From: Microgenomates group bacterium
GTDB taxonomy: Bacteria > Patescibacteriota > Microgenomatia > PFEM01 > JBNASD01
Reading direction: 5' to 3'
NCBI GenBank assembly: GCA_049720225.1
Contig: JBNASD010000004.1
Coordinates: 1,117-65,116, forward strand
DNA: 64,000 nucleotides
The notes under the pieces are model-generated. The model was not told the DNA's origin. It saw only the letters and a list, made by a program, of their open reading frames with translations, and searched no databases. A program made the translations under genes and the position numbers. Shown piece after piece: positions 3,793-57,911 of this stretch; within the stretch, counting starts at the first letter, position 1; each line of letters begins with the position of its first letter.

Positions 3793-3810
3793 TTAAATGA
3801 TTATAACAAA

Positions 3811-6003
3811 TTAAAATTGAAAAGAAGGTGTCGGTGAAGGATGACAGGTAACTTTACTTTCCGTACCGGCGATAAAAAACTCTTCTTTACCACATACTCT
3901 TTTTTTAATAATTCCTTCGGGGACTGGCCATTTCTTATCGGGGACATCTTTTAAAAGATAACTTATAATTTTATTCCAAATTGGCGAAGCGCCGGTTACT
4001 CCTGAAGCAACATAACTCATTGGTGAATTATCGTTATTACCTACCCAAACAGCAACCAAGAAATCAGGAGTATAACCAATAGTCCAATTATCACGCAAGT
4101 TTTGAGTAGTTCCTGTTTTTACGGCAACAGAGGGATGGGTAGGGATGTTTAACCAAGAGCGAAAACCAAAGGCGGGAGCCCGAGCGGAATTATCTGAAAG
4201 AATATCATTAATCAAAAAGGCAACCTCTGGACTAATTATTTGAAAATTGGAATTTGGAATTTGGTTTTTTTCTAAGACTTCTCCTTTATAATTTTTAACC
4301 TCCAAAATAGGATTTAAATCGACTCTTTTTCCCATATTAGCAAAAACCCCATAAGCAACGACTAAATCAATCATTTTTACTTCTCCTCCTCCCAAAGTTA
4401 AGGAAAGACCAAAACGAGAAGAGTCTTCCCAGGTGGTAATTCCCATTTCTTTTCCGCGTTGGATCATTTTATCAACTCCCAAAGAGGCTAAGACTTTAAC
4501 TGCTGGCACATTATAAGAAGAAGCTAATGCGATTCTTAAAGGAACATTTCCGTGAAATTGATTATCATAGTTTTTTGGAGAATAAGGAGGTTGACCGGGA
4601 AGATGATAAGTAATGGGCGTATCAGATAAAATAGTGGCTGGAGTAAAACCATTTTCTAAGGCTAAAGAATACATGATCGGTTTTATTGCCGAGCCTGGTT
4701 GTCGGGGGCGAAGAGTAACGTTGACATTGCCGTCGTTTTTGACATCAAAATAATCAACCGATCCCACCATTCCTAAAATTTCTCCCGTTGAGGGATTAGT
4801 AATTAATACTGCTCCATTATTTATTTTTAAACTTCTTAATTTTTTAATTTCTTGGGTAACTACTTCTTGAGCGTATTGTTGGATTTCCCAATCTAAGGTA
4901 GTTTTAACTTCCAGTCCTCCCTCTTCAACTAATTGTTCACCGTATTTTTGAGTGAGTAATTCTTTTACATACATTACAAAATGGGGAGCTTTAATTTCTG
5001 TTACTTTTGGTCGAAAATGAAGTTCCTCTTTTCCTGCTTTTACCTCTTCCTCTTTAGAAATAAAACCTTCCTCACGCATTCTTTTTAAAACTAAAAGCTG
5101 TCTTTCTTTGGCAAGTTCCGGATGAGCGCCAAAAGGAGAAAAACGGGTGGGAGAGGCGGGTAAACCAGCTAATAATGCCGCTTCAGCTAAACTTAAATCT
5201 TTAGCGGATTTGCCAAAATAAGTTTGGGCTGCTTCTTCAATACCATAAGCGGTTCCCCCATAGTTAACTTCATTAAGATACATCTGAAGAATTTCTTCTT
5301 TGGTGAATTTAGTTTCCACAATAGCGGCTAAAATAATTTCCTTAATTTTTCTTTTTAAAGTTCGTTGGGGAGTGAGGAGAGTATTTTTAACTAATTGTTG
5401 GGTAATTGTTGAACCACCATAAAGCTTTCCTCCTTTTAAATTTCTAATTCCTGCCCTGATGATTCCTTTAATAGAAAAACCGTGATGAGAATAAAATTCG
5501 GCATCCTCAATAGCTAAGGTAGCTTGAATAAGATAAAGCGGAAGATCATTTAACTTAACTAACGTGCGGTTTTGATTACGATAAATTTTATACAAAAGAT
5601 TTCCCTTGCGATCATAAATTTTGGTGGTTAAAACTGGTTGACGAGTCAAAAGTTGGTTAGGATTAGGAAGGGAATAAAAAATATTAAAAATTAAATAGCA
5701 AATGGCAAATATTAAAGCAATTAATAAAATTAAAAAAATTTTTTTAGGAGAAAGTTTAATTTTAAATTTAATTTTGGGAAATTTAACCTCAGGAGATTTA
5801 AATTTTAAAAGCCTTATTTTTTTAAAAGAAATTATTATTTGGAGAAATTGAAAAAGGAAAGAAATTAAACCTAAAATTAACCAATAAAATGGTTTTCCCA
5901 ATAACTGGAATATTCTTCCTATTTTTACCAAAAAACTCAGGGCAGGCTTTTGGAAAGGGAGTTTTTTGGCGGTAAAAATCGTTCCTGTCCTTTTTTCCGC
6001 CAT
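3811..6003 (-). CDS. Class A penicillin-binding protein (bifunctional transglycosylase/transpeptidase), paralog 1
   Basis: GT51 motifs (EDAEFYSHHG, GGSTITQQLVKN). Transpeptidase motifs SAIKP (SxxK) and KTGTT. N-terminal TM segment. Confidence 0.85.
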   Translation of the reverse strand: MAEKRTGTIFTAKKLPFQKPALSFLVKIGRIFQLLGKPFYWLILGLISFLFQFLQIIISFKKIRLLKFKSPEVKFPKIKFKIKLSPKKIFLILLIALIFAICYLIFNIFYSLPNPNQLLTRQPVLTTKIYDRKGNLLYKIYRNQNRTLVKLNDLPLYLIQATLAIEDAEFYSHHGFSIKGIIRAGIRNLKGGKLYGGSTITQQLVKNTLLTPQRTLKRKIKEIILAAIVETKFTKEEILQMYLNEVNYGGTAYGIEEAAQTYFGKSAKDLSLAEAALLAGLPASPTRFSPFGAHPELAKERQLLVLKRMREEGFISKEEEVKAGKEELHFRPKVTEIKAPHFVMYVKELLTQKYGEQLVEEGGLEVKTTLDWEIQQYAQEVVTQEIKKLRSLKINNGAVLITNPSTGEILGMVGSVDYFDVKNDGNVNVTLRPRQPGSAIKPIMYSLALENGFTPATILSDTPITYHLPGQPPYSPKNYDNQFHGNVPLRIALASSYNVPAVKVLASLGVDKMIQRGKEMGITTWEDSSRFGLSLTLGGGEVKMIDLVVAYGVFANMGKRVDLNPILEVKNYKGEVLEKNQIPNSNFQIISPEVAFLINDILSDNSARAPAFGFRSWLNIPTHPSVAVKTGTTQNLRDNWTIGYTPDFLVAVWVGNNDNSPMSYVASGVTGASPIWNKIISYLLKDVPDKKWPVPEGIIKKRVCGKEEFFIAGTESKVTCHPSPTPSFQF

Positions 6004-15687: not shown

Positions 15688-18027
15688 ATGAATTCCATTG
15701 ATAGTTTTATTTCTCTTTTAAAGTATTATTTTATAATTGGCGGTCTAATTTTTCTTTCTTTAATTGGTTTAGCAATTTTAAGCTATGCTTTTCTTTTGTG
15801 GTGGCGCCATAAAGATCGCGAGAAACGTTCTTTAGAATATGTCGTTCTTCAAGTGGCAGTTCCTTTTGATAATGAAATTAAAATTGATGCCGCAGAACAA
15901 ATGTTTGCCTCTTTATATTCGATTAAAAAAGGAGGATTTTTAAAAAAATTTTTTCATCTTCAGCCCCATTTATGTTTAGAAATTGTTGCTAAACATGAGG
16001 ATATTCGCTTTTATGTCACCGTTCCTAAAAAACTTCAAGATTTGGTAGAAAAACAGATTCATTCTGCTTATCCTGATGCAGAAATTGTAGAAGTTCCTGA
16101 ATGGAATATTTTTACTCAAGAAGGTTGCGTGGCATTTGCGGAACTGGAAACTAAAAAATCAGTTTATGCGCCAATAAAATGTTATAAAGATTTACCAACA
16201 GATCCATTGGCGGGAATTACCACGGCTTTAGCTAAAATGGGACCAGAAGAGGGAGCAGCAATTCAAATTATGATTTATCCGGCTGATTCTGGTTGGCAAA
16301 AGAAGGGAAAAGAATACATCGCCAAGGTTAAAAAAACAGAAGCAGATCCTCAAAAAGCCAAGTTTAAGGTAGATGCAAGAACTTTAGAAGCAATTGAGAA
16401 TAAATGTAGTAAACCCGGTTTTAATACTATTATTAGAATAGTAACCGTTTCTTCAACTACCGAGGGAGCAAAGGTTCATTTAGACAATATTAAATCCACC
16501 TTTTCCCAATTTGCTTCTGATTTAAATTATTTTGGAAGCCGAAAAATTTGGTTTAAGACAGGTTTTATGATTGATTTTCTTTATCGTTATCAACCAATTT
16601 TCCGTTTTCGGGGAGTAAAAACGATTCTTAATTCTGAAGAATTAGCGACAGTTTTTCATTTTCCCAATAAACAAATAGAAACTCCTCATATTTACTGGCT
16701 TTATGCTAAAAGAGCTCCTGCTCCAATTCAAATCCCTAAACAAGGCCTTTATGTAGGAATGTCGGTTTATCGCGGAGTAAGAAGACCGGTTTATATTGCC
16801 GATGACGATCGTCGGCGACATATTTATATTATTGGAAAAACAGGCACAGGAAAAACCGAACTTTTGCGCGATTTTATTCTTCAAGACATTCGTGCGGGCA
16901 AAGGAGTTTGTTTAATTGACCCCCATGATTTAGCGGAAGATATTTTGAATTTTATTCCTCCGGAGCGAGCAGAAGAGGTGATTTATTTTGATCCTTCGGA
17001 TACCGAAAGACCAATGGGATTGAATCTTTTGGAAGCTTATACCGAAGATCAAAAACATATGGTAACTACCGCCATTATTAATTTAATGTATAAACTTTAT
17101 GATCCTTATAAAACTGGGATTATTGGTCCTCGTTTTGAACATGCCATTCGCAATGCGATGTTAACGGTGATGTCGGAACCAGGAAATACTTTCGTTGAGG
17201 TAGTTCGTTGTTTAACTGATTCTCGTTTTGTTCAAGAAATGTTGCCAAAAGTGACTGATCCGGTGGTTCGGCGTTATTGGACTGACCAAATTGCCCAAAC
17301 TTCTGATTTTCATAAGTCAGAAGTTTTAGATTATATTGTTTCTAAGTTTGGTCGTTTTGTTACCAACAAAATGATGCGGAATATTATTGGTCAATCAAAG
17401 TCCGCTTTTGATTTTAGAAAGGTAATGGACGAAGGAAAGATTTTAATTATTAATTTAGCAAAAGGAAAAATTGGTGAGGAGAATTCATCCTTTTTGGGTT
17501 TAGTTTTAGTGCCAAAAATTTTAATTGCGGCAATGAGTCGTGCCGATATTCCCGAGGAACAAAGGAAGGATTTTTATTTGTATGTCGATGAGTTTCAAAA
17601 CTTTGCCACTCCTGACTTTGCCCAAATCTTATCAGAGGCAAGAAAATATCGATTAAACTTGTGTGTTGCCAACCAATTTATTGGTCAAATGGAGGAAGAA
17701 ATTAAAAATGCGGTTTTTGGGAATATTGGAACTTTAATTGCTTTTAGAGTAGGAGTCACTGATGCTTCTTATTTACAACATGAATTTCAGCCAATTTTTG
17801 GCGAAGATGATTTGCTTAATATTGAACGGTTTCACGCTTATGTAAAAACGATTGTTCATAATGAGCCAGTTCCTCCTTTTTCTGTTGATTTAACCAAAGA
17901 TATGACTCTTTTGAAAAAACAGCGTAACCCGCGAGTGGGAGAATTAATAAAGCAACTTTCTCGTTTACGCTATGGAGTGGCGCGAGAAATAGTCGAAGCG
18001 GAAATTGCCCAAAGAGCAAGATTATAG
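15688..18027 (+). CDS. Membrane-anchored P-loop ATPase, TraD/VirD4/TrwB-like coupling-protein or DUF87-type
   Basis: Two N-terminal TM helices, Walker A IIGKTGTGKTELL, and Walker B-like LYVDEFQNF about 210 aa downstream. Family call from motif spacing only. Confidence 0.5.
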   Translation: MNSIDSFISLLKYYFIIGGLIFLSLIGLAILSYAFLLWWRHKDREKRSLEYVVLQVAVPFDNEIKIDAAEQMFASLYSIKKGGFLKKFFHLQPHLCLEIVAKHEDIRFYVTVPKKLQDLVEKQIHSAYPDAEIVEVPEWNIFTQEGCVAFAELETKKSVYAPIKCYKDLPTDPLAGITTALAKMGPEEGAAIQIMIYPADSGWQKKGKEYIAKVKKTEADPQKAKFKVDARTLEAIENKCSKPGFNTIIRIVTVSSTTEGAKVHLDNIKSTFSQFASDLNYFGSRKIWFKTGFMIDFLYRYQPIFRFRGVKTILNSEELATVFHFPNKQIETPHIYWLYAKRAPAPIQIPKQGLYVGMSVYRGVRRPVYIADDDRRRHIYIIGKTGTGKTELLRDFILQDIRAGKGVCLIDPHDLAEDILNFIPPERAEEVIYFDPSDTERPMGLNLLEAYTEDQKHMVTTAIINLMYKLYDPYKTGIIGPRFEHAIRNAMLTVMSEPGNTFVEVVRCLTDSRFVQEMLPKVTDPVVRRYWTDQIAQTSDFHKSEVLDYIVSKFGRFVTNKMMRNIIGQSKSAFDFRKVMDEGKILIINLAKGKIGEENSSFLGLVLVPKILIAAMSRADIPEEQRKDFYLYVDEFQNFATPDFAQILSEARKYRLNLCVANQFIGQMEEEIKNAVFGNIGTLIAFRVGVTDASYLQHEFQPIFGEDDLLNIERFHAYVKTIVHNEPVPPFSVDLTKDMTLLKKQRNPRVGELIKQLSRLRYGVAREIVEAEIAQRARL

Positions 18028-34593: not shown

Positions 34594-35196
34594 TTATCTT
34601 AAAATTATTTTTTCTAATTCGTTAGCAAGAAGATAATTTGGATCAAGAGATAATGCTTTCTTTAACGATTCTTTTGTCTTTTCTTCTTGAGAATTTTTGT
34701 AAGTTAATACTGCTAATTGCAACCAACCATCTCGATAATTGGGGTATTTTTCTAAAATCCTTTCCCACCCATTAATAAGTTTTTTGATATCTTCTGGATC
34801 AGAATAATGTTTTTGTTGCCAAAGTTGGTTAATTTTTAAATTTGGGAAATTGAATTTTTCTGCTAAGCGAAGAATTTTTTCTGCTTTTTTAAATTGATTA
34901 TTAGCCAAAAGTTTTTCTGTTAATATTAATTGAAGTTCTGGCCTATTAGGGTTTTTAATTAACTCTTCCTTTAATTTTTGAATTTCACTTTTAGGGAAAA
35001 GGTAAGAAAGAACAAGAAGAAATAAAAGAAAAAGTATTACTCCTAAGCTTCCAAATTTTTTAGTTAATCTTTGTAATCTTTTGGCCTGAGGTTTAGTGAC
35101 TTTTCTAATCTCTCTAATCTTATCTTTCCACCAAAAATGCCACCTTTTTAAAAATTTTAAATCCTTAATTTTTCTATATTCTTTTTTCATACTCAA
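34594..35196 (-). CDS. Membrane-anchored TPR-like repeat protein
   Basis: N-terminal TM, then helical TPR-like repeats (NQFKKAEKILRLAEKF..., YRDGWLQLAVLTYKNSQEEKTKESLKKALSLDPNY). 8 nt downstream of the LanM-like gene. Confidence 0.45.
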   Translation of the reverse strand: MSMKKEYRKIKDLKFLKRWHFWWKDKIREIRKVTKPQAKRLQRLTKKFGSLGVILFLLFLLVLSYLFPKSEIQKLKEELIKNPNRPELQLILTEKLLANNQFKKAEKILRLAEKFNFPNLKINQLWQQKHYSDPEDIKKLINGWERILEKYPNYRDGWLQLAVLTYKNSQEEKTKESLKKALSLDPNYLLANELEKIILR

Positions 35197-35203
35197 AAGT
35201 ATA

Positions 35204-36775
35204 TCATAAATAATTTCTTAGTGACGACAAAATTTTCTTAGTCTGAATTTCCAAATCTTTTTTAGAAAGAGAAAAAAGTTTTTTTTCTAATTCTTCTAAT
35301 CCGGTAGAGTTGAAAAAATTTTTATAACAATTTCCCTCTTCATCATAAAGATGGGGCTTAGTGATTTCTGTGTAAAAATAAGGAACATTTAAGTTCATAA
35401 TTTCTTTAACTTCATAGGGAATTAGTTTTTTTACCCTAGGATCTTGATTTCCTAAACCGCTTTTTAATTTTTTAGTAATAAATTTTAAATAATTATTATT
35501 TTTTAAGTTAGACGGTTGAAGAAGATTTTGAATAAAAAAAATATAAATAGAAGTTGGCCGAATAATTTGCCTTAATTTAAGAGGAGAAGATAAAGGTTGA
35601 GAATTTAGAAAATCTTTTATCCATTTGATAACTAAATCTTTATTTTGTTGAAAGAAGTTATAAACGTTTTCAAAACCAAGAATAATTTCTTGGCAATAAT
35701 CTTTTGGTTCAACAAGAGTTCCTTTAAAATAAAGGCGATTATGGGGAGTAAACCTACTTATTGTTTTATATCTGACGCAGATTTTATCGGTGCCATCATT
35801 TTTGGGAAAGGGAGTTAAAAGGCTAAGGCGAGGGGTACTTCCTCCTTGAAGTCCAGAGGTTTCTCCTATTTTTGATTTGCTTTTAGGATCAGAAAGAAGA
35901 CCAGTAAAGAAAATATTAGGTTTTTTTGGAAAACCCTTAAATGAGAAATGATGAAAAAAAGTTTCGGTATCTAAAAGATAAAGATTTCCTTTGTTAACTA
36001 CTAAATTATCCATATGAAGATCAGTAGCGTTTAGTATATAGCTTAAAGCAATTATTCCTCCCGCTTGATAATAGAATTTTTTAGCTTGAGATTGAGAAAT
36101 AACATTTTCATCTTTGTCGATAAAAAGACGATAAGAATAATAGTTTTTATCTAAAAAAGGAACTGTTTTAAATAAAGGCTTTCCGAAAGTCTTATTTATT
36201 TTTTCTGAGATAAAGTAAACAATTTTTTCCGAATTAGTTTGATAGGGTTTATAAACCAAAAGAAAATTGTTGTTAAATTCAAGAATCAAAGTTTGTTGAC
36301 CTTGGTGGTGCCGGTCACTATTTGGGGGGATTTTTATTTTTAAAAGATTATTTTTTTCTGAAGATAGAGAAAAAATTTTGGTTATTTCCCCCCAATCATT
36401 TATTAATCTATCAAGACAAACTTTTGTTGATTTTATGGTGGAATTAGTTAAAATAAAAAGGAAGTTTTCAAGTTGAGGATATTTAGAAAAGAAAAATTTA
36501 TCAATAGGTGCTTTTTTAACAAAAAAATCTTTATATCTTAAGTGAGAATTTTTTCCCTTAAGTTCTTTTTTAATTCGGGCGAGATTTATTTCTAAAGCGA
36601 AGGTGGGAAGAATAAATTTTTCTAATTCTTTATTTAAATAAGAATCAAGGTTATTAATAATAGAAGAATTGATGATTAATTTAGAATTTTTGTTTTGAGA
36701 CTTAAGAGAAGAAAGATAATTTTTAATTTCTCTTTTTGCTTTTTTTAAAAAAGAAGAATAAATAAGATAACGCAT
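35204..36775 (-). CDS. LanM-N-terminal-like (DUF4135-type, lipid-kinase-like) putative dehydratase-domain protein
   Basis: The ATDLHMDNLVVNKGNLYLLDTETFFHH block matches the LanM dehydratase catalytic-loop/metal-binding pattern DLHxEN...xDxE. At 523 aa it is roughly half a LanM, with no LanC-like cyclase part. The start ATG abuts the stop of the upstream Cys/Thr-rich peptide ORF. Confidence 0.45.
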   Translation of the reverse strand: MRYLIYSSFLKKAKREIKNYLSSLKSQNKNSKLIINSSIINNLDSYLNKELEKFILPTFALEINLARIKKELKGKNSHLRYKDFFVKKAPIDKFFFSKYPQLENFLFILTNSTIKSTKVCLDRLINDWGEITKIFSLSSEKNNLLKIKIPPNSDRHHQGQQTLILEFNNNFLLVYKPYQTNSEKIVYFISEKINKTFGKPLFKTVPFLDKNYYSYRLFIDKDENVISQSQAKKFYYQAGGIIALSYILNATDLHMDNLVVNKGNLYLLDTETFFHHFSFKGFPKKPNIFFTGLLSDPKSKSKIGETSGLQGGSTPRLSLLTPFPKNDGTDKICVRYKTISRFTPHNRLYFKGTLVEPKDYCQEIILGFENVYNFFQQNKDLVIKWIKDFLNSQPLSSPLKLRQIIRPTSIYIFFIQNLLQPSNLKNNNYLKFITKKLKSGLGNQDPRVKKLIPYEVKEIMNLNVPYFYTEITKPHLYDEEGNCYKNFFNSTGLEELEKKLFSLSKKDLEIQTKKILSSLRNYL

Positions 36776-36916
36776 TTAAGAACAAGTTCCTGTCGCACAA
36801 CATTTAGTGGTTCTCAACGAAGATTTTTCAATTATAGGTAATACTTTTTCTAAATCTTTAATGCCTGAAGGATCATTTTCTGGATATCTTTTTTCTTGTT
36901 CAGTTGGTCTTGACAT
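36776..36916 (-). CDS. Candidate RiPP precursor peptide (46 aa) MSRPTEQEKRYPENDPSGIKDLEKVLPIIEKSSLRTTKCCATGTCS
   Basis: Manually translated minus-strand ORF, below the ORF-track size cutoff. The C-terminal 11 residues contain 3 Cys, 4 Thr and 1 Ser. The TAA stop is directly fused to the ATG of the LanM-like gene (TAAATG). No clear SD. Confidence 0.4.
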   Translation of the reverse strand: MSRPTEQEKRYPENDPSGIKDLEKVLPIIEKSSLRTTKCCATGTCS

Positions 36917-36971
36917 AATAAAATAAAAAAATTAATATTTAATGAATAATTTATATCATTAATCAATTTAA

Positions 36972-37439
36972 ATGTCAAATTTATTAACGGAAAAAATAGA
37001 AATTAAAAGAGCAGAAAAAAAGGATTTAGAAAAAATAGTCAATTTGGTAGCAGATTTTTATTCAGAAGAAGAAAGACTAGATCCACGGGCAATTACTGCC
37101 GGAAAGGAAAAACTTACCAAAGCAATTGCTAAAAAGTTGGAAGATAAGAAAAAAAATTTTTACTTTCTTGCTTATAGCGAGGAAGAAATTGTTGGTTTGC
37201 TCCAAATTTTGTTAATTGACCGAAAACTGGCAGAGTTAATTTTAGTTTATGTAGTACCAAAATTTAGAAATCAAGGTATAGGAAAATATTTAATTTCTTG
37301 GGGATTAACTCAATTAAAAAATTGGGGAATAAAGTTTGTAAGAGTGGAAATAAGAGAAAAAAACTACGTTTCCCAAAAGATTTTTTCTTCGTTTAATCCT
37401 TCACTTTATAGTTGTACTTATACTATTTCTCTTTTTTAA
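36972..37439 (+). CDS. GNAT-family N-acetyltransferase
   Basis: RNQGIGKYLISWG (acetyl-CoA binding Q/RxxGxG/A motif). 155 aa. Divergent from the peptide ORF. Confidence 0.7.
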   Translation: MSNLLTEKIEIKRAEKKDLEKIVNLVADFYSEEERLDPRAITAGKEKLTKAIAKKLEDKKKNFYFLAYSEEEIVGLLQILLIDRKLAELILVYVVPKFRNQGIGKYLISWGLTQLKNWGIKFVRVEIREKNYVSQKIFSSFNPSLYSCTYTISLF

Positions 37440-39445
37440 TTTGGCCATTCAGTAATAATTAAGGGTGTTTTTCTTTGGGGTAGTTTTTGCCAGATTTCTT
37501 CGGTAACAAAAGGAGCAAAGGGGTGTAAAATTTTAAGAGAAGTTTCCAAAACATAAAGTAAAATTGGCTGGGCATCTTTTTTTCGAGCTTTACTTTTTTC
37601 AATATAGACGTCGCAAAATTTATGCCAGAAAAATTGATAAATTTCCTCTAGTGCTAAATCAAATCGGTATTTTTTAATAAAATGGGTAACCTTTTTTACG
37701 GTTTTTTTGGTTTCCGTTAAAATCCACTTATCATCAGGGTTGGTAATATTATTTAAGTTTTTAATTATTGAGATACTATCAGGGCATTCTTGATTTAATA
37801 AAACAAATCGAGAAGCATTCCAAATTTTATTAGTAAAATTTCGCCAAGCGATAATTTTTTCTTCCCCAATTTTTATATCATTTCCGGGGGCGTTGCCGGC
37901 AATTAAGGCCATCCTTAAAGCATCGGCACCATATTTTTTAACCATATCCAGAGGATCAAATCCAATTCCTGCGGTTTTACTAAATTTTCTTCCCTTTTCA
38001 TCGCGGACTAATCCATGAAGATAAACTATTTTGAAAGGAATCTTGCCTGTCATTTCCAAACACATCATAATTTCGCGGGCAACCCAGAAGAATAAAATAT
38101 CATAACCGGTTTCTCTTACGGTGGTAGGATAAAAATATTGAAAATCTTTGGTTTTTTGGGGCCAGCCAAAAACAGAAATTGGCCATAAAGCGGAAGAAAA
38201 CCAGGTATCCAAGACGTCTTCTACACCAGGAAGAGGAATTTTATGTCCCCACCATAGTTGGCGAGAGATACACCAGTCTTTGATATTTTCTAACCAGTGA
38301 AAATAAATTTTTTCAAAACGTTTTGGGAAGATTTTTATTTCACCAGTTTTTACTGCTTTAATTGCTTTTTTAGCTAATGGTTGAGTTTTAACAAACCATT
38401 GTTTAGAAATTAAAGGTTCGATTATCGTATTACATCGTTGGCAATGACCAACCTTATGAGTAATTTCTTCAATTTTTTCAATAAATCCATTTTTTTGCAG
38501 ATCTTTAACTACTTTTTCTCTTCCTTCTTTTACTGATAAACCTTGATATTTTCCGGTTAAGGCAGTTAATTGTCCATCAAAATCAACAGCTATTAATATT
38601 TTTAATTTATGGCGTTGACCAATTTCAAAGTCTAAAGGATCATGTCCAGGAGTAATTTTTAAAGCTCCCGTTCCAAATTTTGGATCAACCGCTTCATCTT
38701 CAATTACAGGAATTTTTCTTTCAGTTAAAGGGATGGGGATTAATTGACCAACTAAAGATTTATATTTTTTATTACTGGGATGAATTGCCACCGCGACATC
38801 GGCAAAAATAGTTTCCGGTCGAGTGGTGGCAATGGTAATTGGACCATACCTTAAATAATAAAGCTTCCCTTTTTCTTCTTTATAAATATTTTCTAAATCA
38901 GAAATAGCGGTGTGACAAGAAGGGCACCAATTAACAATTCTTTCTCCTTGATAGATTAATCCCTTACGATAAAGTCGAAGAAACGCTTCTTTAACTGCTT
39001 GAGAGCGAATTTTATCCATCGTATAAGCTTCTCGACTCCAATCTAAAGAAAAACCTAATTTTTTGAGTTGCTGGCGAATGTAATTTTTGGAATTTTCCGC
39101 AAAAGCGGTTGCCCTTTTTAAGAATTCCTTTTTGCCAACTTGATTTTTAGTTTTTCCTTCTGCTAATAATTGCTTACAAACTAAATATTCCACCGCGATT
39201 GAAGCATGATCAAAGCCGGGGAGCCATAAAGTGGGATCTCCCTTCATTCGGTGATAACGGACCATAATGTCTTCTACAACATACATTGCATGGCCTGCAT
39301 GGAGAGAGCCGGTAACATTTGGTGGAGGAAGGGTAATTACAAAAGGTTTTCTTTTTTTATCAATTTTTGGGGTAAACCAACCACCTTTTTCCCAAAATTG
39401 ATAAATCTTTTCTTCAACTTTTTTTGGGTCGTATTGTTTATCCAT
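37436..39445 (-). CDS. valS: Valyl-tRNA synthetase, compact form lacking C-terminal coiled-coil
   Basis: PPPNVTGSLHAGHA (HIGH), KFSKT (KMSKS-like), and LHPFAPFVTEEIWQ at the anticodon-binding domain. Only 669 aa. Confidence 0.75.
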   Translation of the reverse strand: MDKQYDPKKVEEKIYQFWEKGGWFTPKIDKKRKPFVITLPPPNVTGSLHAGHAMYVVEDIMVRYHRMKGDPTLWLPGFDHASIAVEYLVCKQLLAEGKTKNQVGKKEFLKRATAFAENSKNYIRQQLKKLGFSLDWSREAYTMDKIRSQAVKEAFLRLYRKGLIYQGERIVNWCPSCHTAISDLENIYKEEKGKLYYLRYGPITIATTRPETIFADVAVAIHPSNKKYKSLVGQLIPIPLTERKIPVIEDEAVDPKFGTGALKITPGHDPLDFEIGQRHKLKILIAVDFDGQLTALTGKYQGLSVKEGREKVVKDLQKNGFIEKIEEITHKVGHCQRCNTIIEPLISKQWFVKTQPLAKKAIKAVKTGEIKIFPKRFEKIYFHWLENIKDWCISRQLWWGHKIPLPGVEDVLDTWFSSALWPISVFGWPQKTKDFQYFYPTTVRETGYDILFFWVAREIMMCLEMTGKIPFKIVYLHGLVRDEKGRKFSKTAGIGFDPLDMVKKYGADALRMALIAGNAPGNDIKIGEEKIIAWRNFTNKIWNASRFVLLNQECPDSISIIKNLNNITNPDDKWILTETKKTVKKVTHFIKKYRFDLALEEIYQFFWHKFCDVYIEKSKARKKDAQPILLYVLETSLKILHPFAPFVTEEIWQKLPQRKTPLIITEWPN

Positions 39446-50021: not shown

Positions 50022-51236
50022 ATGAAAATCGCAATTATTGGGGGAGGAATCGGAGCGTTAACTACTGCGTTTTGCCTTTCTAAAAAAAACCAAAAGGTAT
50101 TTTTATTTGAGAAAGAAAAACGATTAGGAGGTTTAGCTAGTGGTTTAAAAGAAAAAAATTGGCAATGGCATTTAGATTGTTTATTTCACCACCTTTTTAC
50201 TTCAGACAAAGAAGCAATTTCTTTAATTGAGGAAATTGGTTTAAAAAACTCTTTGTTTTTTTCTCGACCCAAAACAGCAATTTTTTATGAGGGGAAAATT
50301 TCTCAATTTGATTCTCCTTTAAGTTTATTAACTTTTCCTCATTTAAATTTTGTTGAAAAAATTCGGGCAGGATTAGTTACTTTTTATCTTAAACTTAATA
50401 ATAATTGGCAGAATTTAGAAAAAATTGAAGCTACCAAATGGCTTGAAAAATTTTATGGAAAAAGAAATTATCAAATTTTATGGGAACCACTGTTAAAGGG
50501 AAAATTTGGTGCTCAAGCAGAAAAAATTTCTATGGCCTGGTTTTGGGCAAGGATTAAAAAAAGAAGCACCAAATTAGGATATTTAAAAGGTGGGTTTCAA
50601 GTTTTGATTAATACATTAGAAAAAGAAATTAAAAAAAATGGCGGAAAAATTTTTCTTAATCAGGAAATAAAAAGCCTAAAGGAGTTAAGTGATTTTCAAA
50701 AGATAATTATTACTGCTCCTACAGAAAAATTTTTTCCTGGAAAGTTTCCCTCAATGTTAGGGGCAATAAATTTAATTTTAATCTTAAAAAAACGATTTTT
50801 AACTGACGGGACTTACTGGTTAAATATTAACGAAAAAAACTTTCCTTTTGTTGCGGTAGTTGAGCATACTAATTTTATAGATTCTAAGTATTATGGTGGT
50901 AATCACATTTTGTATGTGGGGGGTTATTATCCCCAAAACCATCGTTATTTTAAAATGAACGAACCTCAGATTTTTAAAGAATTTGCACCATTTTTGAAAA
51001 AAATAAACCCAATTTTCAATTTTGATTCTTCAATCTTAAATTTAAAATTAACTAAAAATCTTTTCGCTCAGCCAATTGTTCCAGTGAATTATTCCCTAAT
51101 TTTAAAGAAAGCTAAAAAATCTTTACCAAAAAATATTTATTTAGCTAATATGCAAACAATTTATCCTTACGATCGAGGAGTGAATTATGCCATTGCTCAA
51201 GCAAAAAAAGTTACTCAAGAAGTTTTGGCAGAGTAA
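50022..51236 (+). CDS. FAD/NAD(P)-binding oxidoreductase (amine-oxidase / UDP-galactopyranose-mutase-like Rossmann protein)
   Basis: N-terminal MKIAIIGGGIGALTTAFCL...FEKE (GxGxxG dinucleotide-binding motif). The specific family was not resolved. Confidence 0.5.
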   Translation: MKIAIIGGGIGALTTAFCLSKKNQKVFLFEKEKRLGGLASGLKEKNWQWHLDCLFHHLFTSDKEAISLIEEIGLKNSLFFSRPKTAIFYEGKISQFDSPLSLLTFPHLNFVEKIRAGLVTFYLKLNNNWQNLEKIEATKWLEKFYGKRNYQILWEPLLKGKFGAQAEKISMAWFWARIKKRSTKLGYLKGGFQVLINTLEKEIKKNGGKIFLNQEIKSLKELSDFQKIIITAPTEKFFPGKFPSMLGAINLILILKKRFLTDGTYWLNINEKNFPFVAVVEHTNFIDSKYYGGNHILYVGGYYPQNHRYFKMNEPQIFKEFAPFLKKINPIFNFDSSILNLKLTKNLFAQPIVPVNYSLILKKAKKSLPKNIYLANMQTIYPYDRGVNYAIAQAKKVTQEVLAE

Positions 51237-52830
51237 TTGGCCAGAAATTTTTTTTGCCATTTTTGCTTTCTGTTTTTCTTGGTGGCTAATGTGGCATACC
51301 TTTAATTATAAAGATGGCCAAATGCTTATTGCCGGAAAAGTTTGGTCTGATTTTGCCGCTAACATTCCTTTAATTCGTTCTTTTTCTTGGGGAAAAAATT
51401 GGCCACCAGAATATCCTTTGTTTCCTGGAGAACCAATTAGATATCATTTTTTATTTTATTTTTTGGTAGGGATGTTGGAAAAAATCGGTTTACCAATTAG
51501 TTGGGCTTTAAATTTACCCAGTATTTTTGGTTTTTTTGGACTTTTGTTAATAATTTATTTTTTAACAAAGCTTTTATTTAATAAACGTTTTGTTGCTTTT
51601 TTGGCGGTAATTTTTTTTCTTTTTAATAGCTCTTTAACTTTTTTAGAATTTTTTCGTCAACATCCTTTATCTTGGGAAACTCCAAAACAAATTTTGACTA
51701 ACCGAAATTTTCCTTCTTTTGGACCTTATGATGGAAAAATTATTTCTGCTTTTTGGAGCTTGAATATTTATACCAATCAGCGTCATTTAGCAAGCGCTTA
51801 TTTTTTGATTCTTTTGATGGTTTATTTAATTGTAAAAAAAATAAAAGAAAATAAAAAAATAAAATTTTGGCAGATTGTATTTTTAGGAATTATTTTTGGA
51901 ATGATGCCCTTTTTTCATAAAGTAGGTTTTTTAATGATAGTAATAATTTTGGGATTTTTCTTTTTATTTTTTGCTAAAATTCGTAAAGGAATTTTTTTAA
52001 TTGGTGTAATTGGTTTGATTTTTTCTTTACCCCAAATTTTTTATCAAACAAAAGGGGAGATGTCTTCAATACTATTTTATCCTGGTTATTTAGTAAGCCA
52101 CCCTCTTAATTTAAATAAAATTTTATCTTATTGGTGGCAAAATTTAGGTTTATCATTAATTTTAATTCCTTTGGGATTTTTATTGGCTAACAAATTAGCG
52201 AAAAAAATATTTCCTCCTTTTTTTTCTTTGTTTTTAATTGCCAATCTTTTTCAATTTTCTCCAGAAATAGCCGCCAATCATAAGTTTTTTAATTTATTTA
52301 TTATTGTCGGCAATATGTTTTCTGCTTGGTTTATCTTTTTAATTTGGGAGAAAAAATTTTTGGGAAAAATAATGGCTTTATTATTAATTTTTTTGATGAC
52401 TTTTTCAGGAATTATTGATTTTTTTCCTATAAAAAACGATATAATTTACCGAATCGATGATGCCCCCAAAAATCCTGAAGTTAAGTGGATTAAGGAAAAT
52501 ACTCCACCTGATGCTGTTTTTTTAAATTCTTCTTACTTATATCATCAAGCTTCCTTAGCGGGTCGAAAAATTTTTTTAGGTTGGCCTTATTTTCCTTGGT
52601 CAGCGGGATATAATGTTGATAAAAGAACTCAATTAATGAAAAAAATTTGGGGGAGTAATGATAAAGAAGAAATTTGTTTTCTTTTAAAGCAAAATCTTGT
52701 TTATGGAGTATTTTTAGAAAATAATCTTTCTGATTTTTCTGTTGATAAATTATTTTGGGAAAATTATTTTTCCCCTTCTCATAAAACAGATAATTTATCT
52801 TTATATTTAACTGATAAAAATTGTCAATAA
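51187..52830 (+). CDS. Polytopic membrane protein, GT-C-fold glycosyltransferase-like (ArnT/PMT-like), start uncertain
   Basis: More than 10 predicted TM helices, with large loops. No defining catalytic motif seen. The 5' end overlaps the upstream gene by about 50 nt, so the true start is probably internal. Confidence 0.4.
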   Translation: MPLLKQKKLLKKFWQSNWPEIFFAIFAFCFSWWLMWHTFNYKDGQMLIAGKVWSDFAANIPLIRSFSWGKNWPPEYPLFPGEPIRYHFLFYFLVGMLEKIGLPISWALNLPSIFGFFGLLLIIYFLTKLLFNKRFVAFLAVIFFLFNSSLTFLEFFRQHPLSWETPKQILTNRNFPSFGPYDGKIISAFWSLNIYTNQRHLASAYFLILLMVYLIVKKIKENKKIKFWQIVFLGIIFGMMPFFHKVGFLMIVIILGFFFLFFAKIRKGIFLIGVIGLIFSLPQIFYQTKGEMSSILFYPGYLVSHPLNLNKILSYWWQNLGLSLILIPLGFLLANKLAKKIFPPFFSLFLIANLFQFSPEIAANHKFFNLFIIVGNMFSAWFIFLIWEKKFLGKIMALLLIFLMTFSGIIDFFPIKNDIIYRIDDAPKNPEVKWIKENTPPDAVFLNSSYLYHQASLAGRKIFLGWPYFPWSAGYNVDKRTQLMKKIWGSNDKEEICFLLKQNLVYGVFLENNLSDFSVDKLFWENYFSPSHKTDNLSLYLTDKNCQ

Positions 52831-54242
52831 AAATGAAATTTATAAAAAAATTAAAAATAAATTTTTACTTATTTATTGCCCTTTTTCTATTTTCTATTTT
52901 ATATTTACCATTTTTAGAATCTTTTCCTTATCTAGACGGCAATATTGATTTTGTTCAGTCATATCATTTTTTAAAGGGAGGATTTAAAGAATATTTTAAT
53001 AATTGGACTTCAGTTCATCCCCCTTTTAAAGTTTTTATTTCTTCATTATTTTTTAAATTTTTAGGCTTTAATGTTATTTCCTATAATTTGATAGGATATT
53101 TTTTTGGTTTAATATCAATTTTATATTTTAATAAATTAGCTTTTCTAATTTTTGATAGTCGAAGTGCAAAAATAGCGACAATTCTTTTAGCTACTTCTCC
53201 TTTATTTTTAGCTACCGCTATTTTTTCTCTAAGAGATTTTTTATTAACTTCTTTTTTAATATTATCTTTATATTTTTACCTTGTTTCTAATTATTTTTTT
53301 TATTTATTTTTTTCTACGCTTAGTTTTTTATCTAAAGAATCTGGTTTACTTTTAATAGTTTGTGTGATTTTGATTGAGTTTTTTAGTTTTTTAAAAAATA
53401 AAAAAAATTCAAAATTTTTAATCACCTTAAGTGGATTAACGATTCCTTTTTTATGGTGGTTTTTTTTAAAAATTAATCAAAAAACCTCATGGAGGGATTG
53501 GCTTTTTTCAGAATATGCTTCTAAGGGAACTTACTATGTAATGATTAAAAACCTTCTTGAATTAAAAATATTTAATCAATATGCCTATCAGCACTGGCTT
53601 CATCTTTTTATTCTTAATTTTAATTGGATATTTTGGTTAATTTTTCTAATTGGTTTTTTTTGGATGTTTATTAAAAAATATAATATTTTTTTAACCTTTT
53701 TGATGAATTTTAATCAAAAAGCCAAAACGGTTTTAGTTATTGTTCTCTTAATTATAAGTTATTTTTTAACTGTTCTTTGCTTACCGACTTATGCGATTCC
53801 TCGATATATTCTTCCAATTTTGCCCTTTCTTTATTTGCTTGATTCCTACATTATTCAACTTTTTTTGATTAAGAAGAAAAGATTATTTAGTTTTTTTATA
53901 AATTCAGGAATGATCGTTTTAATTTTCCTAAGTTTATTTTTTTCTTTAGACCCTCTTTCTTTAAAAATTTGGGGTAAAATAAAAATTTTTGGAAAGAAAT
54001 TTTACGCTCTTAATGAACATTTTGCAGGAAACGATGGGATTACTTATAACTTTCAATACCTATATTTAATCAAAGAAAGAACTAAGAAGATTTTGGAAGC
54101 AAATAATAAAAAAGATTCTGTTGTAAGTGAAGATTGTTATTGGATTTTTCCTGATCCAAGAAATGATTTTCAAACGATACAAATTTTAAAATTAAATGGT
54201 ATAAATCTCGATATCCCTTGTAGGGAAATTAAAGTTAATTAA
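52821..54242 (+). CDS. Polytopic membrane protein, GT-C-like (ArnT/PMT-like)
   Basis: Multi-TM, with a first extracytoplasmic loop YLDGNIDFVQSY reminiscent of the PMT/ArnT first-loop acidic motif. Confidence 0.4.
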   Translation: MSIKMKFIKKLKINFYLFIALFLFSILYLPFLESFPYLDGNIDFVQSYHFLKGGFKEYFNNWTSVHPPFKVFISSLFFKFLGFNVISYNLIGYFFGLISILYFNKLAFLIFDSRSAKIATILLATSPLFLATAIFSLRDFLLTSFLILSLYFYLVSNYFFYLFFSTLSFLSKESGLLLIVCVILIEFFSFLKNKKNSKFLITLSGLTIPFLWWFFLKINQKTSWRDWLFSEYASKGTYYVMIKNLLELKIFNQYAYQHWLHLFILNFNWIFWLIFLIGFFWMFIKKYNIFLTFLMNFNQKAKTVLVIVLLIISYFLTVLCLPTYAIPRYILPILPFLYLLDSYIIQLFLIKKKRLFSFFINSGMIVLIFLSLFFSLDPLSLKIWGKIKIFGKKFYALNEHFAGNDGITYNFQYLYLIKERTKKILEANNKKDSVVSEDCYWIFPDPRNDFQTIQILKLNGINLDIPCREIKVN

Positions 54243-54258
54243 TAACTAATTCAATAAA

Positions 54259-55470
54259 ATGAGATTGAAAAATATTTTTTTGTTTATTTTAATCATTTTT
54301 TGTTTAATTTCCTCTTATAAAATATTTTTAGTAAGTAAAAATATAAGCAACGATTATCATTTTTCTTTATTGGCGGAAAGTTTTCTTCAAGGAAGATTAG
54401 ATCTTTTAACTAATTCTTCTAATTTTCCTCCAGGAGATGTCGCTTTTTACAAAAATAAATATTTTATTTATTTTGGTCCTTTACCAGGAATTATTCTTAT
54501 GCCTTTTGTTTTGCTATTTGGAAGTAATTTTCCTCAAAATTTTTTGACAATTTTAATCTCTTTTTTAAGTTTTTGGTTAATAATAAAAATTGCTCAAAAA
54601 TTTAATTTTAGAATCGAAGATTCCTTATGGATAGCACTTTTTTACATTTTTGGAACTGTTTATTCCTTTTTAACTTTAGTTAATATTTCCGCTTTTCAAG
54701 TTCAAATAATAGGAAATTTTTTTATTCTTTTAGCTATTTATGAATTTTTTAGCAAGAAGAGACACTTTTTAATTGGTTTATATCTTTCTTTAGCGATGGC
54801 TACCCGTCTTACATTATTAATGGGAGTTATTTTTTTTATCTTGGACATTCTCGAGAAAAATTATTCTTTTAAAAGGAAAGTTTTTTTATTGATAAATCTT
54901 CTATTCCCAATTGGATTAATTGGCTTTTCTCTAATGATTTATAATTTCGTTCGGTTTGATAATATTTTTGAGAGTGGTTATAAATATAATATTACTCTCC
55001 CTTATACTTCTAATTTTAATGCAGTTAAAAAGTATGGTATTTTTTCTTTCTATCATCTTCCAATAAATATCTATTATTTTGTCTTTAGCGCTCCTATTTT
55101 AATAAGAAATTCTAGTGGAATTCCCATATTTCCCTTTTTAAAAGCTGATCATTGGGGATTAAGCATTATTTTCACATCACCTCTTTTAGTTTTTTCTTTA
55201 TTTTTTTTAGATTTTAAAAAAAATTGGAAAGAAATAATAACAACTTTTTTAATTAGTCTTTCAATTTTCACTTATTATGGAGTGGGAGTTTCTCAATTTG
55301 GTTACCGCTTTGCTTTAGATTTCTATCCATTTTTATTCTTGATTCTTTTAAAGACACTTAATGGAAAACTTATTTTTATTCATAAGTTATTAATTATTTA
55401 TAGTATTATTTTCAATTTTCTTTTTATGCTTTCTATTTGGGAAAAATATCCTTTGTTAGGAATTTATTAA
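54259..55470 (+). CDS. Polytopic membrane protein (GT-C-like, uncharacterised)
   Basis: 403 aa, about 11 TM helices. Confidence 0.35.
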   Translation: MRLKNIFLFILIIFCLISSYKIFLVSKNISNDYHFSLLAESFLQGRLDLLTNSSNFPPGDVAFYKNKYFIYFGPLPGIILMPFVLLFGSNFPQNFLTILISFLSFWLIIKIAQKFNFRIEDSLWIALFYIFGTVYSFLTLVNISAFQVQIIGNFFILLAIYEFFSKKRHFLIGLYLSLAMATRLTLLMGVIFFILDILEKNYSFKRKVFLLINLLFPIGLIGFSLMIYNFVRFDNIFESGYKYNITLPYTSNFNAVKKYGIFSFYHLPINIYYFVFSAPILIRNSSGIPIFPFLKADHWGLSIIFTSPLLVFSLFFLDFKKNWKEIITTFLISLSIFTYYGVGVSQFGYRFALDFYPFLFLILLKTLNGKLIFIHKLLIIYSIIFNFLFMLSIWEKYPLLGIY

Positions 55471-55847: not shown

Positions 55848-57911
55848 ATGCTATCTGATTTTTTATTTATTTTATATTGGTGGATATTACTTTTTGGAAT
55901 AGGGGTAGTTTTTTTGCCTTTAACCTTTTTAATTTTTGAAAATTTTTTTGATAAAGGTTATGTGTTTTCCAAGATTTTAGGTATATTAATTATTTCCTAC
56001 TTAACTTGGCTTTTAGGAAGCTTAAGAATACTTCCTTTTACGAACTCGACGATTTGGTTATTAATTTTCTTTAGTGTTTCCTTAAATTACTATTTACTTT
56101 TAAAAAGCAAAAATTCAAAAGTAAAAAATAAAAATTTAAAATTTAAAATTCTTTTAAGTAAAAAATGGAAAATATTTGTTTTTGAGGAAATTTTGTTTTT
56201 GAGTACTTTAGCCTTTTGGTCTTTTATTCGTGGTTTTCAACCCAGTATTCAAGGTTTAGAAAAATTTATGGATTATGGTTTTGTTAACTCTATCTTGCGT
56301 TCTAAATATTTTCCTCCAGTAGATATGTGGTTAGCAGGAGAAACAATAAATTACTATTATTTTGGTCATTTAGTTTCCGCAGTTTTGACTAAACTTTCCG
56401 AAATTGATTCGGCGATTACTTATAACTTAATGATGGCGACTTTATTTGCTTTTACTTTTACTGGAGCTTTTTGCTTTGGAGCAAACCTTGTTTCCAATTT
56501 AAAATTTAAAATTTTAAACTTTAAGTTGGTTACAACAGGAGGCATAATGACAGCTTTTTTATTAAGTTTAGGTAGCAATCTTCATCCACTTTGGTATTTT
56601 CTTAAAAATAGTAGTTACAAAGGTTATTGGTATCCTGATGCAACAAGATTTATAGTACAAATTTTTGGTGCTAAAGATAACACTATTCACGAGTTCCCTG
56701 CTTATAGTTTTGTAGTTGCTGACTTACATGGTCATCTTTTAAATTTGCCCTTTGTTATTCTTTTTTTATCATTGATGCTTTCTTTTGTTATAGATATAAA
56801 CAAAGATTGGAAGTTGAGAAATGAAAATTTAATTATTTCCTCATTACTACTAGGGACTTTTTATGTGACTAACACATGGGACTTTGCAATTTATAATTTA
56901 GTTTTTGGGGGGTTAATTTTGTTATTTAATTATTTAAGATATAAATTTGCGTTGTTAACAATTTTAGATACCGCAAGGATTGTTTTTCCAGTTTTTATTG
57001 GATCATTTTTATTTAGTTTGCCATTTCATATTAAATTTAAAAGCTTAGTAGGGGGGATTGCTTTTGCTGATTTTCATTCGCCATTATGGATGCTTTTAGT
57101 TTTATGGGGATTTCCCTTATTTATTTTTTTAAGTTTTCTATTGTTTATTAAACTAAAAAAAGATGAATTATTAATTGCCGATTATTTTATTCTTCTTATT
57201 TGGGGAGTTTCTTGGTTTTTAATTATTTTTCCGGAATTTTTCTATATTAAAGATATTTACACTCATTCTTACCAAAGAGCTAATACTATGTTTAAGCTAA
57301 CTTATCAATCTTTTGTTATGTTTTATTTAACTAGTTTTTATATAATTTTTAAAATAATAATTTCACTAAAAAAGGGCATTTTAAAGTTTTTATTTTTAAA
57401 TTTAAACTTTATTTTCTTAATTTTTATATTAGGAATTTATCCTTATTTTGCTATTAAATCTTATTATGGATTAAAAATTTATCGTGGTCTTTATGGACTT
57501 GATTTTCTTAGACGTAATTATTCCGATGACTATCAAGCAATTTTGTGGTTGAAAAAAAATATTCACGGTCAACCCGTTATTGTAGAAGCAGTAGGGGAAA
57601 GTTATACTGATTTTGCTCGGGTTTCCGTTAATACTGGTTTACCAACAATTCTAGGTTGGCGAGTTCATGAATGGCTTTGGCGAGGCTCTTTTGACGAGCC
57701 GGGAAAAAGAACTGGAGAAGTTCAAGAAATTTACGAATCAAGAGATTTAAGAAGAACAAAAATGCTTTTGGATAAATATAATGCAGAATATGTTTTTATT
57801 GGAACTTTAGAAAGACAGCAGTATCCAAATCTTAATGAAGAAAAATTTGAAAATTTGGGAAAATTAGTTTTTGTTTCCGGAAACACAAAAATTTACAAAA
57901 TTGACCGCTAA
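55848..57911 (+). CDS. Large polytopic membrane protein with C-terminal soluble domain (YfhO/DUF2298-like putative glycosyltransferase)
   Basis: 687 aa, about 14 TM helices, and a C-terminal ~150-aa hydrophilic domain. Confidence 0.35.
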   Translation: MLSDFLFILYWWILLFGIGVVFLPLTFLIFENFFDKGYVFSKILGILIISYLTWLLGSLRILPFTNSTIWLLIFFSVSLNYYLLLKSKNSKVKNKNLKFKILLSKKWKIFVFEEILFLSTLAFWSFIRGFQPSIQGLEKFMDYGFVNSILRSKYFPPVDMWLAGETINYYYFGHLVSAVLTKLSEIDSAITYNLMMATLFAFTFTGAFCFGANLVSNLKFKILNFKLVTTGGIMTAFLLSLGSNLHPLWYFLKNSSYKGYWYPDATRFIVQIFGAKDNTIHEFPAYSFVVADLHGHLLNLPFVILFLSLMLSFVIDINKDWKLRNENLIISSLLLGTFYVTNTWDFAIYNLVFGGLILLFNYLRYKFALLTILDTARIVFPVFIGSFLFSLPFHIKFKSLVGGIAFADFHSPLWMLLVLWGFPLFIFLSFLLFIKLKKDELLIADYFILLIWGVSWFLIIFPEFFYIKDIYTHSYQRANTMFKLTYQSFVMFYLTSFYIIFKIIISLKKGILKFLFLNLNFIFLIFILGIYPYFAIKSYYGLKIYRGLYGLDFLRRNYSDDYQAILWLKKNIHGQPVIVEAVGESYTDFARVSVNTGLPTILGWRVHEWLWRGSFDEPGKRTGEVQEIYESRDLRRTKMLLDKYNAEYVFIGTLERQQYPNLNEEKFENLGKLVFVSGNTKIYKIDR

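Follow-up and report, generated by a model that had tools for sequence, protein, structure and literature searches.

Class II lanthipeptide synthetases (LanM), such as CylM (PDB 5DZT) and LicM2 (6ST5), combine an N-terminal dehydratase of lipid-kinase-like fold with a C-terminal LanC-like zinc cyclase domain, and they act on leader-plus-core precursors rich in Ser/Thr and Cys that are encoded just upstream. Mutagenesis of CylM has assigned K274, D347, H349, N352 and D364 to phosphorylation and D252, H254, R506 and T512 to elimination (PMC4550811), and excised LanM dehydratase domains have been found to suffice for dehydration (PMC10676384). Related dehydratases that depart from this layout have also been described. 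PoyF, from the polytheonamide pathway, is a stand-alone, single-domain DUF4135 protein that lacks a cyclase and dehydrates Thr in the precursor of a ribosomally synthesized, post-translationally modified peptide, or RiPP (PMC9505594). EmbM, from the uncultivated 'Ca. Eudoremicrobium malaspinii', consists of a single LanM dehydration-type domain and is the sole maturase encoded alongside its precursor (PMC9259500), and CcaM (carnazolamide, dehydrazoles) is a divergent DUF4135 dehydratase that yields dehydro residues without lanthionine rings (PMC10676384). Here we analyze a 64,000-nt stretch of DNA (hereafter the window), identified by protein search as a contig of a 'Microgenomates group bacterium' metagenome-assembled genome (MAG), in which a 46-residue peptide, a 523-residue LanM-type dehydratase and a GNAT acetyltransferase are encoded side by side. 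We propose that these three genes probably constitute a minimal RiPP cassette, in which dehydration would be followed by cyclase-independent thioether formation and by acetylation.

The 523-residue protein (35204..36775, minus strand) is a genuine stand-alone LanM-type dehydratase domain. It matches PF13575 (DUF4135), its only domain, from end to end (7e-66), and of the NCBIfam LanM model TIGR03897 it covers only positions 2-519 out of 932, with a score of 305 bits (cut-off 304). An earlier note on this DNA, prepared from the sequence alone, had likened the protein to LanM dehydratases and described it as about half the length of LanM with no LanC-like part, and both statements are borne out by these matches. 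Sequence comparison with solved structures gives real matches to LicM2 (5.5e-30) and CylM (3.7e-25) only, the PI3-kinase matches that come next being marginal. The comparison with 5DZT that the note had suggested gives the same ranking at the level of structure: an AlphaFold2 model of the enzyme (28 homologues; predicted local distance difference test, pLDDT, of 91.9) has 6st5 and 5dzt as its best Foldseek matches in the PDB, with template modeling (TM) scores of 0.75-0.76, and VPS34/PI3K lipid kinases come next. The public record of the enzyme likewise reads 'type 2 lanthipeptide synthetase LanM'. What sets it apart from LanM is the loss of the whole C-terminal cyclase domain.

Residue-level alignment places the CylM phosphorylation residues on K176, D252, H254, N257 and D269 of the window enzyme, and the elimination residues on D154, H156, R402 and T408; enzyme residues 250-277 read ATDLHMDNLVVNKGNLYLLDTETFFHH. 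Among 28 stand-alone homologues the catalytic residues do not vary, except that K176 is kept in at least 90% of them, and all nine are found in the enzyme from a Burkholderia relative discussed below. With the full set of phosphorylation and elimination residues in place, the enzyme is predicted to be a complete dehydratase, carrying out ATP-dependent phosphorylation of Ser/Thr and then phosphate elimination. EmbM shows that the same domain architecture can serve another end, since this stand-alone LanM dehydration-domain homologue yields a di-phosphorylated peptide (PMC9259500), and a kinase-only enzyme making a phosphorylated linear peptide, as in phospeptin, is accordingly an alternative for the window protein as well. 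EmbM, however, stops at phosphorylation and has mutated catalytic-site residues, whereas the four elimination residues are intact here and across the family. Its precursor EmbA is devoid of Cys (PMC9505594), whereas the core peptide described below keeps three Cys and its enzyme is paired with a GNAT. We regard a kinase-only outcome as very improbable.

An exhaustive HMMER search retrieved 5751 relatives of the enzyme. The closest are all about 500 residues long, and full-length LanMs (about 1000 residues) start to appear near E = 1e-45; proteins of 450-560 residues account for 42 of the 150 top representatives, and their nearest neighbors are other stand-alone proteins. Since the stand-alone proteins cluster together, the half-size architecture represents a coherent lineage rather than a set of sporadic truncations. 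The earlier note had postulated a non-canonical RiPP system built on a truncated LanM; the cyclase-less enzyme and its precursor hold up, but a truncated LanM as such has precedents in PoyF and EmbM. The described systems differ from the cassette in other respects too. The target of PoyF is a single N-terminal Thr in a precursor with a long nitrile hydratase leader peptide (NHLP), and its large gene cluster also encodes radical SAM and other maturases, whereas the cassette comprises three genes, its core combines four Ser/Thr with three Cys, and no radical SAM epimerases or methyltransferases recur at its loci. CcaM carries a fused, zinc-independent class III-type cyclase domain that is needed for its activity; it is leader-independent, works on azole-containing cores and co-occurs with YcaO, and none of these features is seen here.

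The precursor gene (36776..36916, minus strand) is an open reading frame (ORF) encoding MSRPTEQEKRYPENDPSGIKDLEKVLPIIEKSSLRTTKCCATGTCS, in which 8 of the 11 C-terminal residues are Cys, Thr or Ser, and its TAA stop codon directly abuts the ATG of the enzyme gene. The peptide can be divided into a leader (residues 1-35), the core TTKCCATGTC (residues T36-C45; 36782..36811, minus strand) and a one-residue tail, S46. Ser/Thr occupy core positions 1, 2, 7 and 9, Cys positions 4, 5 and 10, and Lys position 3. The ORFs, the peptide, the stop/start junction and the flanking genes that the earlier note had listed are all present in the sequence. The small ORF, which it took to be unannotated, is nonetheless already called in the public record ('hypothetical protein ACPLKP_03665 [Microgenomates group bacterium]'). 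The co-translation proposed in the note is better put as co-transcription with translational coupling, as suggested by a stop codon directly followed by a start codon. The window peptide has no Pfam or NCBIfam match and no NHLP-type leader.

Loci for the analysis of precursor conservation were gathered through the enzyme alone, with a metagenome scan seeded with a 6-sequence enzyme alignment, and yielded 15 distinct stand-alone loci with readable upstream sequence. At 13 of these enzyme-first loci, with enzyme identity down to 29%, a small ORF carrying the core motif lies directly upstream of the enzyme, so that the conserved Cys/Thr-rich ORF that the note expected at syntenic loci is indeed found there; the core consensus is [ST]-T-K-C-C-A-[TS]-G-T-C. 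The core region reads RTTKCCATGTCS in the window and SSTKCCGTGTCS in L001, from a complete Parcubacteria genome. It reads STTKCCASGTC in L003, ETTKCCATGTCD in L005, LSTKCCASGTC in L006, SSTKACSTGTCVAA in L007 and DTTRCCASGTC in L008. In L009 it is GTTTCCATGTC, followed by 33 further residues; the remaining loci have ETTKCCATGTCDDDDDDD (L012), STKDCGTGTC(D) (L014 and L015), KTTKCCATGTCGEDDD (L017) and NSTKCCATGTCRSTI (L032). Shuffling all sequences 20 times produced 0 motif matches, and the recurrence of the core upstream of homologous enzymes at 13 independent loci is far beyond chance. The invariant core residues are encoded by all of their synonymous codons, with Ser specified by both TCN and AGC, and this synonymous turnover at invariant positions indicates that selection acts on the peptide. 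The 46-residue ORF is a real, conserved precursor.

Two loci, L010 and L031, have no motif-bearing ORF, and their enzymes form part of a more distant subfamily; the peptide of L010 is a different one, rich in Cys/Ser/Thr and with the leader motif TGRDEL. This peptide (2893-3117 of L010, minus strand; MINDNITGRDELKSF…VPCTSCCGGSSKSCAVLCNTTISTQ…) lies beside P0010, a 528-residue stand-alone DUF4135 protein, and combines a TG-x-x-EL leader motif with a Cys/Ser/Thr-rich core of another kind; an ABC_tran gene is located at 3318-4742 of the same locus. The P0010 subfamily looks like a second cyclase-less family. One further locus, L002 (JAWAET010000069.1, labeled 'Candidatus Pacearchaeota archaeon'), was not counted as independent evidence, being a duplicate of the Parcubacteria locus L001 (AP024682.1, Parcubacteria KatS3mg098), with which it shares a near-identical DUF4135 fragment and RsmE-like and IMP-dehydrogenase-like proteins. 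It is probably a mis-binned contig from the candidate phyla radiation (CPR), and not evidence for the cassette in DPANN archaea.

Alignment of the 13 precursors revealed an invariant leader Gly, G18 in the window, embedded in a [ST]G-x-x-[ED]L motif that in the window forms part of the conserved segment P16-S-G-I-K-D-L-E23 (36848..36871, minus strand). In the generalized form [ST]-G-x-x-[EDQ]-[LI], the motif occurs in 61 of the 94 peptides of the wider family described below, and in 52 of these 61 its Gly lies 18-20 residues ahead of the core. A motif at fixed spacing from the core behaves as expected of a leader recognition element, and, by analogy with the leader motifs of LanM substrates, it is a probable recognition element for the dehydratase. 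Where the scan recovered full-length LanM loci, their precursors are of the ordinary class II kind with GG-type leaders, which shows that the TKCC core belongs specifically to the stand-alone enzymes.

A search with a profile built from the 13 peptides recovered 92 peptide clusters; the motif is present in 86 of them. Position counts were compiled over 94 peptides (the 92 clusters plus the L007 and L014 peptides). The profile search collects candidates by shared 5-residue words, and the invariance across the 94 peptides is hence partly built in, the 13 enzyme-first loci being the unbiased conservation sample. With this reading, core position 1 is T in 55 peptides and S in 39, position 2 is T in 93 and S in 1, position 3 is K in 90, position 4 is C in 91 and otherwise D or A, and position 5 is C in all 94. 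Position 6 is A in 88, position 7 is T in 70 and S in 24, positions 8 and 9 are G and T in all 94, and position 10 is C in 89. The hydroxyl-bearing positions 1, 2, 7 and 9 are thus Ser or Thr in 100% of the peptides, and the Cys and Lys residues are kept in 95-100%. Position 4 is the sole dispensable Cys of the core, and the CC-x-x-G-x-C spacing of its Cys and Gly residues is invariant. Relative to LanM products, a core of about 10 residues that is almost invariant across phyla is a distinguishing feature of the cassette.

Across these roughly 90 peptide clusters the same core is carried by several unrelated leader types. They comprise a short CPR-type leader, a 'KGKKYxGFHPTGYNEINW' leader, a short leader combined with a follower of about 40 residues, a long leader with an IFxSYxxPxYK motif, leaders with signal-peptide-like N-termini and, in a single peptide (P0199), a nitrile-hydratase-type leader, which is the only one reminiscent of PoyF and the proteusins. 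Some precursors with the second type are labeled ribosomal protein L32E by JGI. These are P0161, P0165 and P0167, Parcubacteria-type peptides with a KGKxYKGFHPTGY… leader and an STKCCATGTC core, and they are evidently misannotated RiPP precursors. Downstream of the core, some peptides have poly-Asp tails (DDDDDDD, GEDDD) and others a follower of some 40 residues that ends in G-[YF]-L or GPL; the peptides with divergent tails or N-termini are P0155 and P0171 (L012, L017), P0191-P0194, P0204-P0209 and L009, and P0218, P0234, P0241 and P0207. The variety of tails and leaders around one core implies several distinct processing and export routes.

The family reaches a cultured organism. Burkholderia ubonensis encodes a long-leader member (…RTTKCCATGTCLIWH) in the gene order precursor, GNAT (149 residues), DUF4135 (472 residues) and ABC permease-ATPase, with the stand-alone DUF4135 gene overlapping the GNAT gene by 14 nt. 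The exporter is MsbA/HlyB-like and has no C39 domain. The B. ubonensis enzyme is 23% identical to the window enzyme, and the decapeptide core is identical. The earlier note had placed the system in a reduced genome, a link that does not survive the finding of the same triad, with an identical core, in Burkholderia. Directly after the B. ubonensis exporter, a 'VF_A0006 family four-cysteine protein' (NF041602, 8.5e-31) is encoded at 13886-14191 (plus strand) of the locus, L034; it might belong to the cluster, for instance as an immunity protein. A scan of viral contigs returned no relatives of the cassette, and tblastn against plasmids returned canonical full-length LanMs only, at no more than 28% identity.

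The third component is a GNAT acetyltransferase of 155 residues (36972..37439, plus strand; PF00583, 1.7e-13), encoded divergently from the precursor. Its acetyl-CoA motif R-x-x-G-x-G is represented by FRNQGIGK and is kept in most orthologues. An all-against-all comparison of the ORFs at 14 loci identified only two recurrent families, DUF4135 (14/14) and the GNAT, which is present at 10 of the 14 loci by BLAST and additionally in Burkholderia by Pfam. Two of the three loci without it are on contigs with less than 300 bp upstream, and the third is L009. Identity to the window GNAT ranges from 22 to 55% and roughly tracks enzyme identity. The GNAT, treated as a mere neighbor in the earlier note, is a conserved, co-diverging partner of the cassette. 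A comparable role is known from PaeN, a GNAT that N-acetylates the lantibiotic paenibacillin; the two are likened here by role, as small GNATs encoded with a lanthipeptide-type pathway. GNATs that acylate Lys or N-termini occur in other RiPPs.

These results bear on the most deflationary explanation of the locus, in which the small ORF would be a chance reading frame and the GNAT a nearby housekeeping RimI-like enzyme. RimI (TIGR01575) is the best curated match of the GNAT, and the cassette is embedded among housekeeping genes, but the RimI score (41.4 bits) is far below the cut-off of 86.4, the Burkholderia GNAT reaching 24.6 bits. Moreover, ORF and GNAT recur with the enzyme in otherwise unrelated neighborhoods across phyla, and selection on the peptide is evident at the codon level. 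Recurrence and codon evidence together effectively refute this explanation, which we find barely credible.

No cyclase has been found to accompany the enzyme. A custom LanC hidden Markov model (HMM), trained on the last 420 residues of 60 full-length LanMs and returning 1e-34 to 1e-60 for positive controls at LanM loci, detected nothing in the 64-kb window or at any TKCC locus, and LANC_like is absent from the Pfam lists for the 20 kb surrounding the Burkholderia cluster; the sequence searched amounts to 64 kb for this genome and up to 20 kb for any other. Similarly, no C39 peptidase/ABC exporter (LanT) was found among the window ORFs scanned, and the 35-residue window leader has no GG/GA site, two absences that agree with the earlier note and separate the cassette from LanM systems. 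As regards thioether cross-links, the alignments establish that Ser/Thr donors and Cys acceptors are conserved; with no cyclase present, the product is a candidate lanthipeptide (thioether-ring peptide).

Two alternatives for the fate of the dehydrated core follow different readings of these data. In a split canonical class II pathway, the rings would be closed by a LanC-type cyclase that is a separate protein, with its gene at another place in the genome. The joint conservation of Cys and Ser/Thr in the core is what enzymatic lanthionine formation would call for, invariant Thr, the precursor of dehydrobutyrine (Dhb), usually needs catalysis, and the reach of the LanC search in this genome leaves room for such a gene. 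To our knowledge, however, the cyclase is fused or clustered in all characterized lanthipeptide classes, and here no LanC-like ORF is found in the window or in the flanks of the 14 loci, including 20 kb at Burkholderia; the only recurrent partner is the GNAT. We consider a remote cyclase unlikely.

Alternatively, the peptide might be dehydrated and remain uncyclized, its free thiols forming a metal-binding or redox site or disulfides, and the core acting as a ligand-binding motif. The lack of a detected cyclase and the invariant CC-x-x-G-x-C spacing are consistent with this, and dehydrated RiPPs without lanthionine rings are known from DUF4135 enzymes (carnazolamide, PMC10676384). Yet the cassette contains no metal-related genes, and the replacement of the position 4 Cys by Asp or Ala fits a two-ring thioether better than a three-thiol metal site. 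Free thiols beside dehydroalanine (Dha) or Dhb also tend to add over time. An uncyclized product appears improbable.

For the cyclase-independent cassette that we favor, the pathway would begin with leader recognition, for which the enzyme most likely reads the [ST]G-x-x-[ED]L motif about 19 residues ahead of the core. The enzyme would then use ATP to phosphorylate the four core Ser/Thr and eliminate the phosphates to give Dha and Dhb, an activity on this peptide that we infer from its conserved active site. The three Cys thiols, and perhaps the Lys amine as well, could add to the dehydro residues to generate a very compact polycyclic thioether peptide, and the match of four electrophiles with four nucleophiles (three thiols and one amine) is suggestive in this regard. 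In the simplest ring model there would be two i->i+3 methyllanthionine rings, T2-C5 and T7-C10, leaving C4, T/S1, T9 and K3 free for further links; this arrangement is put forward because C5 and C10 are kept, whereas Asp or Ala can stand in for the Cys at position 4. Since no LanC-type cyclase is fused or linked at any locus, ring closure might be spontaneous or templated by partner proteins. The GNAT would most likely acetylate the conserved Lys, or the N-terminus freed by leader removal, as a step of maturation or self-protection, and at CPR loci leader removal and export would be provided by unlinked functions. Transporter genes do adjoin some loci (ABC-2 in L009, FtsX in L032, ABC in L010 and the Burkholderia exporter). 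In Burkholderia and at some further loci the cassette has an ABC exporter as its neighbor, an arrangement suggestive of secretion. A core so nearly invariant across phyla implies that it forms a pharmacophore or ligand-binding structure under tight constraint.

Several points weigh against this interpretation. Dehydration, ring formation and acetylation are all deduced from sequence, the reach of the cyclase search and the selection built into the 94-peptide set are as given above, and no protease or exporter is linked at the CPR loci. The GNAT was not seen in L009, a 4.5-kb contig that has an ABC-2 permease there instead. In addition, core positions 2 and 9 are Thr almost without exception (T93/94 and T94/94). 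Dhb is less reactive than Dha in uncatalyzed Michael addition, which, taken with the conserved Thr, argues against purely spontaneous cyclization. A more specific form of the proposal is tentative, and we offer it as a possibility. It envisages a polycycle of about 10 residues made without a dedicated cyclase, in which the four dehydrated Ser/Thr would be captured by the three Cys and the Lys, through thioethers and a lysinoalanine-type link, or in which ring closure or Lys acylation would be the task for which the GNAT was recruited. If true, precursor, stand-alone DUF4135 and GNAT would define a new lanthipeptide-like class, and its invariant pharmacophore, common to CPR bacteria and Burkholderia, would act on a deeply conserved target.

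The window has low G+C (about 0.28-0.35) and its large ORFs encode housekeeping functions, among them penicillin-binding proteins, ribonucleotide reductase, FtsH, DNA ligase and valyl-tRNA synthetase (ValRS); the cassette itself sits amid such genes, for example L25, DNA ligase and ValRS. Between the start codons of the precursor and the GNAT lies a 55-bp, AT-rich divergent intergenic region (36917..36971), which from the gene arrangement is presumed to hold both promoters; a promoter and terminator scan around the locus gave nothing above shuffled expectation. On the other side, a gene for a 200-residue tetratricopeptide repeat (TPR) protein (34594..35196, minus strand) starts 7 nt downstream of the enzyme gene and is probably co-transcribed with it in the window. 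Its product has one hydrophobic segment, as a transmembrane anchor, and its matches to TPR_19, TPR_14 and other TPR families exceed the Pfam cut-offs. We rejected this neighbor, also listed in the earlier note, as a component of the system, since tblastn finds no homologue at any other locus, including the 56%-identical sister L003.

Beyond the GNAT, a 669-residue ValRS-like ORF (37436-39445, minus strand) converges on it, with its stop overlapping the end of the GNAT gene by 4 bp; it looks short for a ValRS and has possibly lost its C-terminal domain. Farther away, a 779-residue ORF (15688-18027, plus strand) has weak matches to TrwB/TraG-type coupling proteins (type IV secretion/DNA-transfer ATPases). 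Between 52000 and 56000, G+C falls to 0.24 with strongly negative AT skew, and large membrane proteins are encoded. This region includes a PMT_2 glycosyltransferase-like ORF (52821-54242) and two ORFs without family matches (51187-52830 and 54259-55470), and a DUF2298 membrane protein (55848-57911) lies just downstream of it. It may represent a surface-glycosylation island.

Parts of this picture have been described before, namely stand-alone LanM dehydratases, DUF4135 enzymes without a lanthionine product and a lantipeptide cluster in Microgenomates. A 2020 report (PMC7298704) described clusters for linear azole-containing peptides (LAP) in 93 CPR genomes as well as a single lantipeptide cluster in a Microgenomates MAG, and the earlier note's description of secondary metabolism in such a reduced genome as essentially unknown was in this respect overstated. 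What we did not find in the searchable literature or in curated families is the combination of a TTKCCATGTC-type core with an intact stand-alone dehydratase and a GNAT, lacking a cyclase and distributed from CPR bacteria to Burkholderia: a full-text search for the core strings returned no papers in the sources searched, and neither Pfam nor NCBIfam has a model for the peptide.

If the model holds, the cassette would represent a RiPP family that is widespread and so far unrecognized, and its machinery, one half-size synthetase and one acetyltransferase, would be the smallest known of the lanthipeptide type. Its core is more strictly conserved than its own biosynthetic enzyme, the decapeptide being identical between enzymes of 23% identity, and LanC-anchored genome-mining pipelines would miss the family. 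The questions that it raises are whether thioether rings can form reliably in the absence of a LanC-type cyclase, what part the GNAT plays and which target or ligand lies behind the invariance of the core. The occurrence of the cassette beside an exporter in cultured Burkholderia makes genetics and product isolation feasible. For CPR bacteria, in which very few natural-product pathways are known, the model would provide a defined and experimentally tractable pathway.

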